From an uncultured archaeon (GTDB lineage: Archaea; Asgardarchaeota; Lokiarchaeia; Sigyniarchaeales; SOKP01), in contig CAZGJX010000117.1 of assembly GCA_964525635.1 (NCBI GenBank), forward strand, positions 1 to 11,750: 11,750 nucleotides of DNA. The letters run 5' to 3'. The notes under the pieces are model-generated. The model was not told where the DNA came from. It saw only the letters and a program-made list of their open reading frames with translations, and did no database searches. This document shows positions 1-8,131 of the stretch, in pieces (position 1 is the first letter of the stretch; every line of letters starts with the position of its first letter). The position numbers and the translations under genes are program-made.

Positions 1-437
1 ATAATAACTGCGGGTACCACAAGAATAAGTGTATATGGGATATAAGGTGACATTTTATCCCATACTGTATAAGAAAACCATTTTATAGATTTACCTAAAT
101 CACCTTAAAAAAAGGATCGTAAAAACATAAAATATTGTTCATAAAGAGGTTTATTCAAATCAAAAGCATCGACATATTGCCCATATTTCGCTATAATATC
201 ATCTCAGTCTGTATTTCCAGCAGTTTCAAGTAATCTTGCTCTTACTGAATCTCCGGGCATGAGATGGGGAATTAAAAAAGCTAAAGATATTGCAGCAAAA
301 AATAAAATAAAATAAAAAATTACTTTTTTTAATATAAATTTCAAGAATGAATTGTGAATAACTTTCTTTAAATTATCAATATAACTTTTATCAACTACTA
401 ATTCTGTATTTTCTTCTTCTAATATTTGTAAACCCAT
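1..437 (-). pseudogene. dppB: Dipeptide/oligopeptide/nickel ABC transporter permease (DppB/OppB family), 5' part, disrupted by two in-frame stops; runs off the window's left edge
   Basis: Manual translation past the listed ORF stays in one frame: ...FILKKVIFYFILFFAAISLAFLIPHLMPGDSVRARLLETAGNTD*DDIIAKYGQYVDAFDLNKPLYEQYFMFLRSFF*GDLGKSIKWFSYTVWDKMSPYIPYTLILVVPAVI. It contains the DppB signatures 'F.I.HLMPGD', 'LNKPLYEQY', 'GDLGKS' and 'P.TL.L'. Stops are TGA at 204-206 and TAA at 105-107. Substrate specificity (dpp/opp/nik) is not resolvable. Confidence 0.88.
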
Positions 438-926: not shown

Positions 927-1535
927 ATGGATAATGTGTTTATATCGAATTTTAGCAATCTTAATAATCACCTCAATTTTATAAATATTAGTAGTAAAAA
1001 TATGTCATTATTTGAATGGAAACCACCAAGTTCATTTAGGAGTTATATCTTGGATGTGAACCTAGTAAAGGAATATGCTACAGATGATATATTTTTTCAT
1101 ATTTTTAAAGGGAATAGTAAAATCGTACATATAAAAAAAGGAGATCTGATATACACGATAGGGGCTAATAATGATATTCAATTTCAATTACTTGAAGCAA
1201 TCCTGGAATATATAGATGAAAAATTTAATGAAATGTATGATATTAAAGTTATTTTATCTTTTGAGAATGTATCTTCGAATATATTTACAAGATTTAATAT
1301 TGTTATAGATAGTTTATTAGAGCATTTTAAGAAATTAGATCTGGTAAAGATTATTAATGCTTATTGTCGGGTTTGTAAAAAAATACTTCCTATTCTAGTA
1401 AAAAAAAGTTTTATTGATAATGCAGAAGATTATCCTGTTCCTTTAGTTTATAGCCATAAAGGGCATGCTATTCTTATTTTTATAGATAAAAATTTTGATG
1501 TTAGAGGAGTAGAGCTTGTTAATACAACAGCTTAA
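927..1535 (+). CDS. Longin-like domain protein with C-terminal CxxC...HxxH putative zinc-binding beta domain
   Basis: Residue pattern fits the longin order beta-beta-alpha-beta-beta-beta-alpha-alpha: LNFINIS/SLFEW; helix ILDVNLVKEYA; IFFHIF-KIVHIK-LIYTIG; LLEAILEYIDEKFNEMY; IFTRFNIVIDSLLEHF. It is followed by CRVC...YPVPLVYSHKGHAILIFIDKNFDVRGVELV. The CDS is solid; the fold call is by eye. Confidence 0.7.
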   Translation: MDNVFISNFSNLNNHLNFINISSKNMSLFEWKPPSSFRSYILDVNLVKEYATDDIFFHIFKGNSKIVHIKKGDLIYTIGANNDIQFQLLEAILEYIDEKFNEMYDIKVILSFENVSSNIFTRFNIVIDSLLEHFKKLDLVKIINAYCRVCKKILPILVKKSFIDNAEDYPVPLVYSHKGHAILIFIDKNFDVRGVELVNTTA

Positions 1536-1648: not shown

Positions 1649-2617
1649 ATGGAAGAGAAAATGAACAGTGGAGAAGATAATTATTTTGAAGCTATTGTTA
1701 AAAAAACAAAAACAGGAATCACATTACCTAAAGAAATCAGGGAAGATTTATTTAAATCGAATATAGATGTTTATTTCAAGCTTATTGTTCCAAAGGAAAA
1801 AAATAAAATAATTCTTAATATTATTTCCAAAGAAGAAGCTGAGGGAATTTTAGATAGAAATTTAACGGTTGAAAAATCTGAGAAAACAAGGAAAAAAACC
1901 AATAAAAATAAAGATATTCCAGAACCTAAATGGGCTGAATATTTTGTTTATGATTATGAGAGCAGGAGTAAAGTACAGACTATTTTAGAATCTGCTTATT
2001 ATAAATTTGCAGAAATTCCAGTAGATTTTGATGATGCTATTGGAAGGGTTAAATATACTTTAATTTCTTTTTTATCTCCTACTAAAACCGAAAATGCAAA
2101 ATTATATTATTCTGTCATAAGATTTTTAATTGATATTATTCATAATTTTGGTCATTATAGGTTAATTGAATGGATTTATGATAAAGTAATTCCAAACATA
2201 GATAGTATATTTCTTTATGAACTGGCATTATTAGATTTAATCGAGATAAGTTATAAAATCAAACAAATTGATAATGTTGAAATGTTTGTAAATAAAGTTT
2301 TAGAGAGTATTGATAAATATAATAAATCAGAATGGTATAATATAATGAGTAGTCTTAATCAACTTGTAAAAAAAATTAAACAATTTGAAAGTATATCAGG
2401 TATTTCAAATATTGTAAAAGAAAAATTACTCCAATATGAAGGAGAAACTGAAGTTGATGACTATAAAATCCAAATAATTGAACTTTTAGAAACTTTAAAT
2501 TTTATAGAAGAAGGATATCAATTAGCTGAGGAATTAATAAAAAGTCTCCCTCCTGAAAGTATAAAATTACCTGAAATTAGGAAAATAAGAAATAGACTCA
2601 AAGAAAAACCTATTTAG
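1649..2617 (+). CDS. Hypothetical protein: N-terminal AbrB/MazE/SpoVT-like swapped-hairpin domain plus C-terminal alpha-helical (TPR/solenoid-like) region
   Basis: The N-terminus EAIVKKTKTGITLPKEIREDLF...VYFKLIV...KIILNII matches the AbrB 'G.ITLPKEIRE.L' signature. A Lys-rich linker is followed by amphipathic helix pairs ending LNFIEEGYQLAEELIKSL. Confidence 0.7.
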   Translation: MEEKMNSGEDNYFEAIVKKTKTGITLPKEIREDLFKSNIDVYFKLIVPKEKNKIILNIISKEEAEGILDRNLTVEKSEKTRKKTNKNKDIPEPKWAEYFVYDYESRSKVQTILESAYYKFAEIPVDFDDAIGRVKYTLISFLSPTKTENAKLYYSVIRFLIDIIHNFGHYRLIEWIYDKVIPNIDSIFLYELALLDLIEISYKIKQIDNVEMFVNKVLESIDKYNKSEWYNIMSSLNQLVKKIKQFESISGISNIVKEKLLQYEGETEVDDYKIQIIELLETLNFIEEGYQLAEELIKSLPPESIKLPEIRKIRNRLKEKPI

Positions 2618-3633
2618 GTGTTATTACTATTTTCTTCTTCAATATCTTTCATTTTTTCTTGAATTCTCTTTGATTCGTGTTCCAATATCTTCTGTTGTCG
2701 TTCTTCTACCTCTTTTCTTTTTAATTCGAGCTCTACTTGAGATAAAACTTTTTCTTTCTCTATTAATTCTTCTTTCTTTTTTAAAACTTTCTCTTTTTCT
2801 TTAATTTCTTTTTCTTCTAATTCTAATTGCTTTTTCTTTAATTCTAGGTCCTTTTTTTTAAGTTCGACTTCTTTATCTAAGATTTTTTGTTCTACTTTTT
2901 TTAACTCTTTAACAATTTTAACTTTTTTCGTATTATCTGGTGTAATAATATCATGCAATTTCTCTTCTTCAACAATCTCATCAATTTTTTCAACAGACAC
3001 TATAGCTTTTAAAATAAGATCCAAATTTTTTTTTAATTCTTCATTTTCAGGAAATTGTTTAAGGTAATTTGTTAAAATTTTTGTAGTTAATGAAGGAGCT
3101 TGTTTGCCTATTACTATTAACACTTGAAGTGCCTTTTCTATAACAAAATCTTGCTTACTTGATAAAGAATTAGCAACTGCTTTTATTTGTGATTCTTCAA
3201 GATTTATTTTTTCTCCTCCCACAATAAAGAGCAATAGTTGTAAAGCCGCTTCTACTACATTAGGATCTTTTGATTCCAATAAGCTTTCAATATGAGGGAG
3301 TATTAAATCAAATTCATTTTCACATATTGACTTTAATAATAATAGAAAAGAATATCGGAGTACGGAATCTCTCTTAGATAAATTGTTTAATAGTGATGGT
3401 ATGTCAATTATATTATGTTCAAGGAGAAAACGAAGTACCGTTTTACCCCCATGTAAAGTTAAAACAGCTTCTAATATATTTTCTATTCTATCTAAATCAT
3501 TTTCGTCAGTACTTTTCTCTAAATACAATGCAATTTGTTCTACAGCATCATCTATTCTTCCTTCATTTACTAATTCTTTAATATTTTCTATTTCCTCATC
3601 ATCTATATTTTCTTCAGTCATATTTATAACCAT
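2614..3633 (-). CDS. HEAT/ARM-repeat protein with C-terminal Lys/Glu-rich coiled coil
   Basis: Three HEAT-like units about 37-39 aa apart: LSKRDSVLRYSFLLLL, LESKDPNVVEAALQLL and LSSKQDFVIEKALQVL. The last ~100 aa are K/E-rich heptads (KEVELKKKDLELKKKQLELEEKE...). The start could be ATG 3633 or ATG 3621. Confidence 0.8.
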   Translation of the reverse strand: MVINMTEENIDDEEIENIKELVNEGRIDDAVEQIALYLEKSTDENDLDRIENILEAVLTLHGGKTVLRFLLEHNIIDIPSLLNNLSKRDSVLRYSFLLLLKSICENEFDLILPHIESLLESKDPNVVEAALQLLLFIVGGEKINLEESQIKAVANSLSSKQDFVIEKALQVLIVIGKQAPSLTTKILTNYLKQFPENEELKKNLDLILKAIVSVEKIDEIVEEEKLHDIITPDNTKKVKIVKELKKVEQKILDKEVELKKKDLELKKKQLELEEKEIKEKEKVLKKKEELIEKEKVLSQVELELKRKEVEERQQKILEHESKRIQEKMKDIEEENSNNT

Positions 3634-3669: not shown

Positions 3670-4632
3670 TTAAACCCAAATAACATAGAATTTATTATAT
3701 ATATAATCAATGATCTTAATGATTTCATTCAGATCTCTATATTTTAAAGGATCTTCAGTTTTAATATTGATTTTATTATAATCTCTATTTTCAATAATTA
3801 AAGTTAATATTAAATCATTAAAATTATCCATATGTAAATTTATCATTTTACAAAATTCTGATAATTTTATTAAATCATCAGGAAAGATATTCCAAAAATA
3901 ATTATCAGGATGATGTTTATTTTGATTTTTTACAATTTTTGAATAATCATTAGTAATTTTAGACACTATATCATATGGAATTTTCATTATAATACTGATA
4001 AATTTATCTTCGATCAGTTTTATAACTATCTCAGGAAAGTACATTTTAGCATGTAATTTAAATATCGCTTTGACTAATTCTAAATCTTCAATTCTCTCTC
4101 TATTAGCATTACATAGTACATAACCCTCATTTAAAAAGATTATATGTAATCGTTCTTCATAATGAATTAAAAAATAATTGTCTGTTCTATAATATCGAAA
4201 TTTTTCTTCTTCTTTTATTCGGTCATCAAGTATTTTATAGGTTGCGTCCCAATTTTTAAAGGAAATATATTTATTTAATTTACGATAATCTCCATGAAAA
4301 AATATGTCTAAAAAGTCAATTAAATATAGATAACTATCAAAAGGTTTGTAAACAATTGTCTTTCCTCTAAAATATCTTTCAATAACACCCTTATTAACAC
4401 TATAACAGAATTTCGGAAGATCTTCCATAGTTAATCCATTTTTTATTCTTAATTTTAGTAGAAATCGACGTGTACACATTGGAGTTAAGGTACATGTGAT
4501 CCGATCAACTTGACATTCTTTAAAACATAAGTCATTGATTCTGTTAATTAGATGTCCTAATAATTCAGAACTCTGTCGCTTAATTATTGGATTTTTTAAA
4601 AAATCAATAATATGCTTTTCTTCTAAGGGCAT
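3670..4632 (-). CDS. Hypothetical protein with N-terminal cysteine cluster (C-x3-C-x6-C-x5-C-x22-C)
   Basis: 320-aa ORF with normal composition, 36 bp upstream of the co-oriented HEAT gene. Cys at aa 36, 40, 47, 53 and 76. No family recognised. Confidence 0.8.
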   Translation of the reverse strand: MPLEEKHIIDFLKNPIIKRQSSELLGHLINRINDLCFKECQVDRITCTLTPMCTRRFLLKLRIKNGLTMEDLPKFCYSVNKGVIERYFRGKTIVYKPFDSYLYLIDFLDIFFHGDYRKLNKYISFKNWDATYKILDDRIKEEEKFRYYRTDNYFLIHYEERLHIIFLNEGYVLCNANRERIEDLELVKAIFKLHAKMYFPEIVIKLIEDKFISIIMKIPYDIVSKITNDYSKIVKNQNKHHPDNYFWNIFPDDLIKLSEFCKMINLHMDNFNDLILTLIIENRDYNKINIKTEDPLKYRDLNEIIKIIDYIYNKFYVIWV

Positions 4633-4942: not shown

Positions 4943-6373
4943 ATGCTTCGACAATTTCATATTATTTACAATGGAGAAAGAGTATTTTCACATACCTTTG
5001 CATTAGCTTTTGAAAATAAAGAAATCGAAAATGTTGCCAATACAATAATAAGCAAAATTGAAATACCCTCACCTGGAAAAATCCTTTCCCGTCGAATTTC
5101 AGAACATCAGATTTTTTATAAAAAGTTTCAAAATATTTGTTTTATTACTGTAACCGATCTAATAGATTCTATAGACTATATTGAAGATATCTTAGATAAA
5201 GCTATTACAAAATTTAACGTAATTTATCATAATATAGAATCTTTAAAATATTCTGAATCCGTTAAAAAAGAATTTATAAATTATCTTATTAAACTACAAG
5301 CAGAATTACATTGCAAAATATCTATAATAGGTCCAACAAATGCAGGTAAATCAACACTTTACACATTATTAACGAAGCATAATAAAGAAAGAAATATAAT
5401 GAATTTTGCTAAGGTCTCAATTCTTGATTTATATGAATTAAAATTTGATGTTTGGGATTTTCAACTAAAGGACAATTTTTCCCTTTTATGGCCCAAATTC
5501 ATACGTGGTTCAGACTTGGTTCTATTTGTTTTTAACGCTGCAAATTACAATTTAAAAGTACTTAACTATTTCCTTACGTTAAAAAAGAAAGAAAGTAATT
5601 TATCTAGATTTATAATCATAGCTAATAAAATGGATTTAATTAGTGAAAGAGATATAAAAAAAATTAAAAATGAGTTAAATTTCTCTAATATCACCTTTTT
5701 ATCTTTTATTAATTCAGATGATAAACAAGAGGTTTTTGATTTAATCAGAAATGCACTTGAATTAAAAAAAGCACTACCAGATAATTTTAATGAATTAATT
5801 AAATCAGCTGAAAAAATGATAGAAGAAAAGAATATAGTTAAAGCATTGGCAACATATAAGGAATTGATAATATTAGCGAACTCATGCCAATGTTATAATT
5901 ATTTGGATGATTTTAAGAGAATTGTGAAAGAAATAGAAGAAAAATTAAATGAAAGAGTCGCTATAAGAAAAAAAATTGAGAGAAAAAAAAAATTTGCTCC
6001 TCCAAAACAAATCTCATTTACAAAAGAAATAAAAGTAAAACAGCTTCCTAAAATTCAGAAATATCCAGAAATTACTAATGAGAAGCCTATTAAAACAGAA
6101 AAGTCAAAACTAAAATTAACACATGATGATATTGCAATAAAAAAAAGTTCTGAAATATTAAAAGTAGTGATGAAAAATCCTGAAGAAAAATATAATGATA
6201 TTAGTGAAATCCCTGATAAAGCACAATTATTACAAGAGATGATTGAATTTAGAGGGAGTAATCTTAATCTGGATTTATGTAATAAATTTATAATGGAAAT
6301 AAAAAACTCCCTTAAAAGGGAATTAACACTGGATGATCTAAAAAGAGCGGCTAATATTTTTATAAAAAAATAA
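4943..6373 (+). CDS. Longin domain + Arf-related small GTPase (degenerate G2/G3) + TPR/MIT-like helical hairpin + C-terminal helical domain
   Basis: aa 1-~120 are longin-like (MLRQFHIIYNGERVFSHTF...QIFYKKFQNICFITVTD...ILDKAITKFNVIY). P-loop GPTNAGKST at 5330-5356. 'FDVWDFQLKDNFSLLWPKFIRGSDLVLFVFNA' aligns by eye to Arf '[32 protein letters not shown]'. G4 NKMD at 5624-5635. Confidence 0.85.
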   Translation: MLRQFHIIYNGERVFSHTFALAFENKEIENVANTIISKIEIPSPGKILSRRISEHQIFYKKFQNICFITVTDLIDSIDYIEDILDKAITKFNVIYHNIESLKYSESVKKEFINYLIKLQAELHCKISIIGPTNAGKSTLYTLLTKHNKERNIMNFAKVSILDLYELKFDVWDFQLKDNFSLLWPKFIRGSDLVLFVFNAANYNLKVLNYFLTLKKKESNLSRFIIIANKMDLISERDIKKIKNELNFSNITFLSFINSDDKQEVFDLIRNALELKKALPDNFNELIKSAEKMIEEKNIVKALATYKELIILANSCQCYNYLDDFKRIVKEIEEKLNERVAIRKKIERKKKFAPPKQISFTKEIKVKQLPKIQKYPEITNEKPIKTEKSKLKLTHDDIAIKKSSEILKVVMKNPEEKYNDISEIPDKAQLLQEMIEFRGSNLNLDLCNKFIMEIKNSLKRELTLDDLKRAANIFIKK

Positions 6374-6443
6374 TAAAAATCTAACTAATTATATAGATTT
6401 TTCAATTCTTAATTATCTACAAATAAATTATAAATAAACTATT

Positions 6444-7937
6444 ATGACTAAGATTAGAGAATTAAATGAGCGTTTTTCTGATTTAAAGAAATTAAAATAT
6501 ATTAATAATCTCCTTGAATGGGATCAACATGTCTACATGCCTGAGAAATCTAATAAAGGAAGAGCCGAACTAATTGAATTAGTTAGTAGAATTACCCATA
6601 AAAAATTGATATCGAATAAAACACAAAGACTTATAGAACAAGCAGAAAGAATCAATGATTTAAATATAATCGATTCAGCAATACTTAGAGAAGCAAAAAG
6701 AGAATATGAAAAGGCAATAAAAGTTCCCACAGAACTAATAACAGAGTTAGCTAAAACATCAATTTTAGCTTATAAAGCATGGAAGGAAGCTAGAGAAAAA
6801 AAGGATTTCTTGAGATTTAGACCTTATCTTGATAAGATTATAGAACTTCAGAAAGAATATGCTGATAAAATCGATATTGGTCTAACAAGATATGATTCAT
6901 TGATCGATGAATTTGAACCAGGTGCAACATCTGAATGGATTTCTGAAATTTTTAATAGATTATCTATCAAACTTAAAACTATTTTGAAAAAATTGATGAA
7001 TTCCAATGATGTTCCTGATCAATCTATTTTAAATAAATATTATAATCCAAAAAAGCAATGGGATTTTAGTATAAAAATCTTAGAAAAGCTAAATTTTGAT
7101 TTCTCAATTGGTAGACAAGATAAGTCTGTTCATCCATTTACAGTTTCATTATCATCAACAGATATAAGAATAACAACTCGTATTTGGGAGAATTTTTTAC
7201 CTGCATGTTTATTTGGAACATTACATGAATGTGGTCATGCATTATATGATGCTGGATTTATGAAGGAAATTCATAATACAAATCTAGCAGGGGGAAGTTC
7301 TTTAGGATTTCATGAATCTCAATCAAGATTATGGGAAAATTTTATTGGGAGGAGCAAAGAATTTTGGGACTATTGGTATCCTCAATTACAGAAATTATTT
7401 CCTGAACATTTAAAAAAATTATCCAAAAATGAATTTTATAGATCAATAAATAGTGTTAAACCCTCCTTAATAAGAGTTGAGGCAGATGAAATAACTTATT
7501 CTCTTCATATTATTTTAAGATTTGAAATAGAGAATTTAATTTTTCAAGATAAAATAACTACATCAGAATTGCCTCAAATTTGGAATGAAAAAACAGAAAA
7601 ACTATTGAATCTTATACCTCCAAATGACTCTGATGGGATCTTACAAGATATTCATTGGTCTGGAGGAGCATTTGGATATTTCCCTACTTATACTTTAGGT
7701 AACTTATATGCCGCTCAACTATATCATAATGCATTAGTTAAAAACCCTCACTTACAAAATGACTTTTCAAAAGGTAATTTCTCAGGGTTTCTTAATTATT
7801 TAAGGGATAATATACATCAATATGGAAAAATTTATCATCCAATAGATTTAATAAAAAAAATATCTGGAGAAAATCTAAATCCTGATTATTTTATCCATTA
7901 TTTGGAAAATAAGTTTTTTCCTATATATTCTGTATAG
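6444..7937 (+). CDS. Thermostable metallocarboxypeptidase, peptidase family M32 (carboxypeptidase Taq-like)
   Basis: M32 motifs are all present: LLEWDQ, HPF, DIRITT, HECGHALY (HEXXH), HESQSRLWEN, IRVEADE, QDIHW, GYFPTYTLG. The 497-aa length is typical. Confidence 0.97.
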   Translation: MTKIRELNERFSDLKKLKYINNLLEWDQHVYMPEKSNKGRAELIELVSRITHKKLISNKTQRLIEQAERINDLNIIDSAILREAKREYEKAIKVPTELITELAKTSILAYKAWKEAREKKDFLRFRPYLDKIIELQKEYADKIDIGLTRYDSLIDEFEPGATSEWISEIFNRLSIKLKTILKKLMNSNDVPDQSILNKYYNPKKQWDFSIKILEKLNFDFSIGRQDKSVHPFTVSLSSTDIRITTRIWENFLPACLFGTLHECGHALYDAGFMKEIHNTNLAGGSSLGFHESQSRLWENFIGRSKEFWDYWYPQLQKLFPEHLKKLSKNEFYRSINSVKPSLIRVEADEITYSLHIILRFEIENLIFQDKITTSELPQIWNEKTEKLLNLIPPNDSDGILQDIHWSGGAFGYFPTYTLGNLYAAQLYHNALVKNPHLQNDFSKGNFSGFLNYLRDNIHQYGKIYHPIDLIKKISGENLNPDYFIHYLENKFFPIYSV

Positions 7938-8077: not shown

Positions 8078-8131
8078 ACTTTTTTGATATTATATTTAAA
8101 TCTTTATTTCACCAGTAGTGTGTTGTTTTTT

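Follow-up and report, generated by a model that had tools for sequence, protein, structure and literature searches.

Asgard archaea are the prokaryotes most closely related to eukaryotes, and their small GTPases are counted as eukaryote-like switches. One gene of a Lokiarchaeia archaeon raises the question of what becomes of a small GTPase when its switch residues are missing, and whether such a gene is decaying or has been kept for another role. The window (the whole stretch of 11,750 nucleotides that was analysed) comes from a metagenome-assembled genome with a GC content of 27%. Positions 4943-6373 on the + strand form one ORF of 476 aa, made up of a longin domain, a putative pseudo-GTPase domain, a helical hairpin, a linker and a C-terminal domain. 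The homologues are labelled mostly Promethearchaeota or Lokiarchaeota, and annotations of the family read Rab, SAR1 or Arf. Longin-GTPase fusions of Loki archaea have been published previously, in PMC4917890 (five of them), in PMC10933270 and, as Clat_adaptor_s-Arf, in the supplement of PMC10307638. A promoter scan of the window gave results at chance level; the scan is designed for bacteria and the host is archaeal.

The AF2 model of the protein had a mean pLDDT of 87.6. Residues 122-272 (5306-5758, +) form a G domain that is derived from ArfL as judged by Pfam, fold match, alignment and tree. Pfam Arf was matched with E 3.7e-10, and matches to Arf, Roc and Ras were all above the cut-off. The best VIA match of the model was a GTPase (Z 16.6, rmsd 2.6, 151 residues), and Pfam and VIA together identify a Ras-superfamily small-GTPase fold. 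Residues 1-121 (4943-5305, +) were assigned to a sigma-adaptin-like longin domain. As matches to the G domain took up the fold searches with the whole model, this assignment rests on profile evidence: AP-2 sigma was matched by a family profile (E 3e-4) and was its best solved match, and some family members match Pfam Clat_adaptor_s, Fuz_longin_1 and Longin. Residues 1-122 of the window protein alone gave no Pfam match; the order of strands and helices in the model of residues 1-121 is consistent with a longin. The fusion of a longin to an Arf-like G domain proposed in an earlier note is supported by the profile, the matches of members and the model, and the N-terminal position of the longin is that of the Asgard longin-fused ArfL proteins.

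The earlier note described residues 1-272 and had the motifs right, but left out the C-terminal 200 residues, which matter. Three long helices (residues 282-350; 5786-5992, +) form a TPR/MIT-like hairpin in the model, common to a canonical paralogue on contig C23 of the source genome. They are followed by a conserved linear motif, FxxPxxIxF...VKxLP (residues 351-369; 5993-6049, +), a disordered linker of variable length (6050-6172, +; residues 370-408 in the model, pLDDT <50) and a three-helix domain (6206-6370, +; residues 426-475 in the model). This C-terminal domain is a marker of the clade and matches no family. It had no PDB match at E <1 and no histone family among its Pfam matches, which were scattered and weak (SapB_1 in 7/66).

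In small GTPases the gamma-phosphate is linked to switch I and switch II through the G2 Thr and the G3 Gly. The motifs were counted in 120 full-length homologues with 36-68% identity. As the earlier note had reported, the G1 P-loop GPTNAGKST (5330-5356, +) and the G4 motif NKMD (5624-5635, +) are intact; GK[ST] was found in 117 of the homologues, NKxD in 100 and NKxE in 18. Switch I reads ERNIMNFA (5387-5410, +), conserved as IM[ND]FA, and is 2-3 residues shorter than in canonical paralogues, with Met153 aligned to the G2 Thr. None of the homologues carries Thr at positions 152-154, and 104 have Met. The G3 motif WDFQLK (5453-5470, +) has neither the Gly nor the catalytic Gln, and Gly at position 175 was likewise absent from all 120; in canonical relatives the G2 Thr and G3 Gly were both present in 65/65. 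Both losses had been noted earlier and were confirmed. The positions of the lost Thr and Gly are occupied by bulky conserved residues. Position 174 is Q, R or E (91, 15 and 6 homologues) and position 176 is K, R or N (81, 16 and 10), giving no invariant polar stand-in for Gln or Thr. The Mg-linked Asp172 is variable (D104, N14, Y2), and near it W171, W183, K185 and D191 are invariant. The G5 motif LSF (5699-5707, +) had also been listed among the defects. It is present, and it is a variant of the xSL of the family (S in 118/120, L in 115/120). It is weak evidence because Rag GTPases have TSI there, according to an alignment in the PMC10933270 supplement, and as a sign of inactivity it was rejected. 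The window protein thus keeps G1 and G4 of a canonical switch, and lacks the G2 Thr and the G3 DxxG with its Gln. By motif state and fold it would count as a pseudo-GTPase in the sense of PMC5593906.

Progressive motif loss, and a deletion that removed the N-terminal part of the gene from the four genomes described below, could be taken to mean that the gene is a decaying, functionless copy. The selection data led us to reject this, and we regard it as hardly credible. Over 13 disjoint gene pairs, the longin had a dN/dS of 0.19, the G domain one of 0.18 and the C-terminal domain one of 0.17, within the 0.17-0.21 seen for every folded part, as compared to 0.44 for the linker. The most constrained stretch was G3/switch II itself (5453-5503, +; 0.09), and G1 and G4 each gave 0.16 in the branch of the window protein. 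A single strong match, free of internal stops, was found in about 110 of the 127 genomes of the family. Eleven loci without a scored full-length ORF are explained by the start-codon filter or a contig end and not by internal stops. The C-terminal domain is single-copy in 41 of the 44 genomes of the order and was found in none of the 157 other Asgard genomes searched; the ten best loci in five genomes of other orders of the class were canonical. As none of the 120 homologues has the canonical residues and the altered motifs, for which the earlier note had proposed a homologue alignment, are under purifying selection, the switch defects are not decay. The same two results give good, indirect support to the earlier suggestion that canonical switching was lost and that the protein acts as a scaffold.

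A deep profile search separated three tiers: the branch of the window protein, a sister branch, and canonical longin-GTPases with PT, DxxGQ and NKQD. The sister branch has the same switch I, a G3 without Gly (Gly in 1/18) and a degenerate G4 (NKxD in 1/18). In trees of longin-fused sequences only, midpoint-rooted and built in quick and FastTree versions, all 37 non-canonical sequences fell on one side of a long branch with support of 99-100, and the same split was obtained when the motif columns were left out and when only the longin was used. The nearest relatives after the clade were the canonical family, whose motifs match entries labelled ArfL by tree, making ArfL the nearest group. The canonical state is taken to be ancestral because G2 and G3 are general to the superfamily. 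Judged from the sequences, the clade appears to have branched off from ArfL, a group confined to Asgard archaea, and it fails the test for a canonical switch. It shares the longin, the Arf-like G domain and the helical hairpin with the Asgard longin-fused ArfL proteins, but differs from them in lacking the G2 Thr, DxxG and Gln, in its shorter switch I, and in having its own tail, one copy per genome and its own gene cluster. The orthologues Lokiarch_11040, Lokiarch_09000 and OLS14325.1 were labelled ArfL by BLAST in bioRxiv 10.1101/2024.02.28.582541, which labelled canonical members by tree and excluded sequences assigned by BLAST only from its representative set. Separately, P0225, P0237 and P0252 lost the G3 Gly independently inside the canonical longin-ArfL clade, in at least two events.

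The orthologues of both cultured Loki species fall in the sister branch. MK-D1 WP_162306730.1 ('LGX' in PMC10933270 Supp. Fig. 6b) and Ca. L. ossiferum UYP43828.1 belong to the same four-gene cluster; they differ from the window protein in that NKxD is absent too, and are annotated 'Rab family' or 'SAR1 family GTPase'. In the passages covered, PMC10933270 remarks only on a missing switch-I Arg of the MK-D1 orthologue and not on the loss of G2, G3 or G4. We found no paper that calls the clade pseudo-GTPases, nor any on inactive Asgard longin GTPases, in a search that covered the subscription literature in part.

An atypical class iii GTPase resembling the RGK proteins (Rad, Gem, Rem1/2) would bind GTP and GDP, hydrolyse slowly or with the aid of residues contributed in trans, and signal by a non-canonical change of shape. 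RGK proteins likewise keep G1 and G4, have a poor G2, carry a bulky residue in place of the G3 Gly (DxWE) and switch non-canonically (PMC4081519). They are nevertheless classed as still catalytic without DxxG or a conserved G2 (PMC5593906 Table 2, PMC4081519), which speaks against the adaptor reading developed below. Conservation of G1 (117/120) and of G4 as NKx[DE] (118/120), with dN/dS of about 0.16, also fits an enzyme of this kind. However, neither Gln nor Thr has an invariant polar substitute, G4 is gone from the sister branch, one member has no G1, and four genomes have a deletion of the domain. We consider this reading rather unlikely. The likeness would be a convergent state and not homology, as RGK proteins are Ras-derived animal proteins without a longin. 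In its way of working, the clade would by analogy come closest to an RGK-type or a class ii pseudo-GTPase. AAGAB, a pseudo-GTPase bound to the sigma of AP1 and AP2 (PMC12490416, which also describes the switch regions), likewise works with a sigma-type longin. It differs in being one of two chains, in belonging to class i (no nucleotide, G motifs absent) and in acting as an assembly chaperone, and is an analogy only.

The source genome has four canonical longin-ArfL copies, and canonical copies were present in the genomes checked. In the manner of Rag-type heterodimers, the clade protein may be a dead partner that pairs with them through its longin and serves as an exchange factor, as a GAP platform or as a decoy. 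It shares its longin-G-hairpin architecture with the C23 paralogue (27% identity over 354 columns), and AF2 longin homodimers have been predicted for MK-D1 longin GTPases in the PMC10933270 supplement. Against such a pairing, non-canonical and canonical genes adjoined in no locus read, and the four genomes with the deletion still have canonical copies; we judge it unlikely. A canonical paralogue (L089:6411-8102, -; G000 contig C23) has no ATG, GTG or TTG at the conserved start and apparently uses ATA or ATT.

The pairing of a longin with an Arf-like G domain is also found in SRX-SRbeta of the eukaryotic SRP receptor, and the earlier note had drawn this parallel. SRbeta keeps DxxG. A single-chain analogue or forerunner of SRX-SRbeta with a role in protein targeting would agree with this architecture and with weak matches to SRPRB in 30 of 67 members and to SRP-alpha_N in 3; an Atlas feature match to SRP-alpha_N at 0.75 is a lead only. 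Yet the SRPRB match of the window protein is below the cut-off (E 0.0038, as compared to 3.7e-10 for Arf), and canonical relatives match Arf at about 1e-20 and SRPRB at 2e-3. The protein has no membrane anchor and no SRP GTPase domain, and the clade is confined to one order. As SRbeta groups with ArfR/Arf and ArfL is Asgard-only (bioRxiv 10.1101/2024.02.28.582541), and the longin is nearest to AP-2 sigma, the parallel holds for architecture and not for kinship, and a targeting role of this kind is very improbable.

In four genomes of a single genus, the syntenic position is taken by a gene of only 126-174 aa, which lies at the usual distance from the divergent neighbour (L122:5102-5479, L123:490-1011, L128:6937-7449 and L129:5219-5617). 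These tail-only genes contain the linear motif of residues 351-369, the linker and the C-terminal domain. Their common start position points to a single deletion event. The full-length gene is present in two genomes of the same genus. In the tail-only genomes, two of which are 98-99% complete, no pseudo-G domain was found elsewhere, the eight best full-length matches being canonical paralogues. The C-terminal domain of the tail-only genes is under purifying selection (dN/dS 0.18-0.33, with dS up to 1.2). One lineage can thus do without the longin-G part, which it lost while the tail was kept under selection.

Three linked genes lie next to the longin-GTPase gene: one for a Cys-cluster protein of 320 aa (3670-4632, -), one for a protein with HEAT repeats and a coiled coil (2614-3633, -) and one for an uncharacterised 322-aa protein (1649-2617, +). 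The order 927+, 1649+, 2614-, 3670-, longin-GTPase gene+, M32 peptidase+ is nearly constant in 80 loci. Among these and the window, the Cys-cluster gene was present in 78/81 loci and the HEAT gene in 74/81. In distant families the M32 and 927 genes drop out and the Cys-cluster and HEAT genes remain adjacent, divergent from the longin-GTPase gene in some and co-oriented in others, and the 1649 gene is often retained as well. In one genome the two gene pairs are 9 kb apart. Ca. L. ossiferum has all four orthogroups (ORTHOMCL1949-1952) in common with P. syntrophicum (PMC9834061 Supp. Table 2).

The Cys-cluster gene, with a conserved N-terminal Cys cluster, is single-copy in 141 of 201 Asgard genomes and a candidate Asgard core protein gene. 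The model of its product (pLDDT 88.8) showed no clear fold, with a best VIA Z of 6.4, Foldseek E >0.01 and no Atlas match at 0.9; ARPC2 and a type III chaperone appeared as weak matches and were rejected. In 15 of 20 loci outside the order, the gene lies directly upstream of a gene whose product, of about 1000-1300 aa, carries a TrmB winged helix as well as very long helical repeats (L093:7911-11834, L109:8205-11867 and 13 other loci), so its link to the longin-GTPase gene is order-specific.

Several other features were recorded around the cluster. The 927-1535 (+) gene may encode a longin-like domain, with a CxxC/His metal site at the C-terminus; its C-terminal piece has paralogues in the source genome, and the gene is linked only within the family. 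At 8084-9133 (+) lies a gene for a Rab-like GTPase that has a helical tail and in which Glu stands where the G3 Asp would be; it overlaps a gene for a coiled-coil protein (9126-9875, +), and this pair occurs in about 23 loci and is absent from distant families. A short ORF at 204-437 (-) resembles the start of an ABC peptide-transporter permease and is apparently interrupted. In L084 only, the cluster includes a gene (5235-7331, -) with a match to Adap_comp_sub (mu-adaptin) just under the cut-off (E 1.8e-7), and L082, L084 and L087 each have an actin gene no more than about 10 kb away. L024 and several other loci of the Loki-type order are titled Nanopelagicaceae bacterium, Hodarchaeota or Hermodarchaeota and are probably mislabelled or misbinned.

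The reading we favour, with modest confidence, is that an Asgard longin-ArfL GTPase gene was duplicated, and that, early in one Lokiarchaeia order, one copy ceased to be a GTP/GDP switch and was retained as an adaptor, with an indispensable tail that works with the products of the linked genes. Without the contacts of Thr and Gly to the gamma-phosphate, canonical switching would not take place and hydrolysis would be absent or negligible, going by the chemistry of GTPases; we hold the loss of canonical switching to be very likely, and little or no GTP hydrolysis to be probable. G1 and G4 are still constrained in the branch of the window protein, so nucleotide may still matter, and there it is probably still bound, as a structural ligand in a class ii-like manner. 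The sister branch would bind nucleotide weakly or not at all. The conserved switch surface reads as a fixed binding surface, and longin and reshaped switch surface may, more tentatively, form a fixed docking module, tethered by the flexible linker to the tail. The tail would make the contact that the cell cannot do without, most likely in a module that also contains the Cys-cluster, HEAT-coiled-coil and 322-aa proteins, and the docking module, dispensable in at least one lineage, would tune or localise it. Against such a module, a single family supplies much of the synteny, and in it housekeeping neighbours, among them the M32 peptidase, are also conserved; moreover, the Cys-cluster gene is far older and has a different neighbour in other classes. 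It is doubtful, though conceivable, that the four linked genes encode a primitive adaptor-like complex of a sigma-type longin, a locked Arf-like domain and the HEAT-coiled-coil protein, in which the pseudo-GTPase would replace regulated Arf binding. The likeness to an AP sigma and HEAT trunk lies in the sequence of the longin and in gene linkage, with putative longin-HEAT binding.

As an innovation restricted to one order, and not an ancestor of a eukaryotic protein, the clade has limited reach. The erosion is graded, from an active paralogue through loss of G2/G3 and then also of G4 to deletion of the longin-GTPase part, and this natural series offers ready comparisons. The adaptor reading is testable because both cultured Loki archaea carry orthologues, and the tail-only genes mark the part to use as bait. 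If the adaptor-complex reading were true, an archaeal pseudo-small-GTPase would have a defined role as a scaffold, and there would be a way to approach an Asgard-wide protein whose fold is unclassified. Pseudo-enzyme reuse of small GTPases is well known in eukaryotes, and an order-wide, single-copy member that is apparently unable to switch canonically would mean that it occurred in Asgard archaea too.
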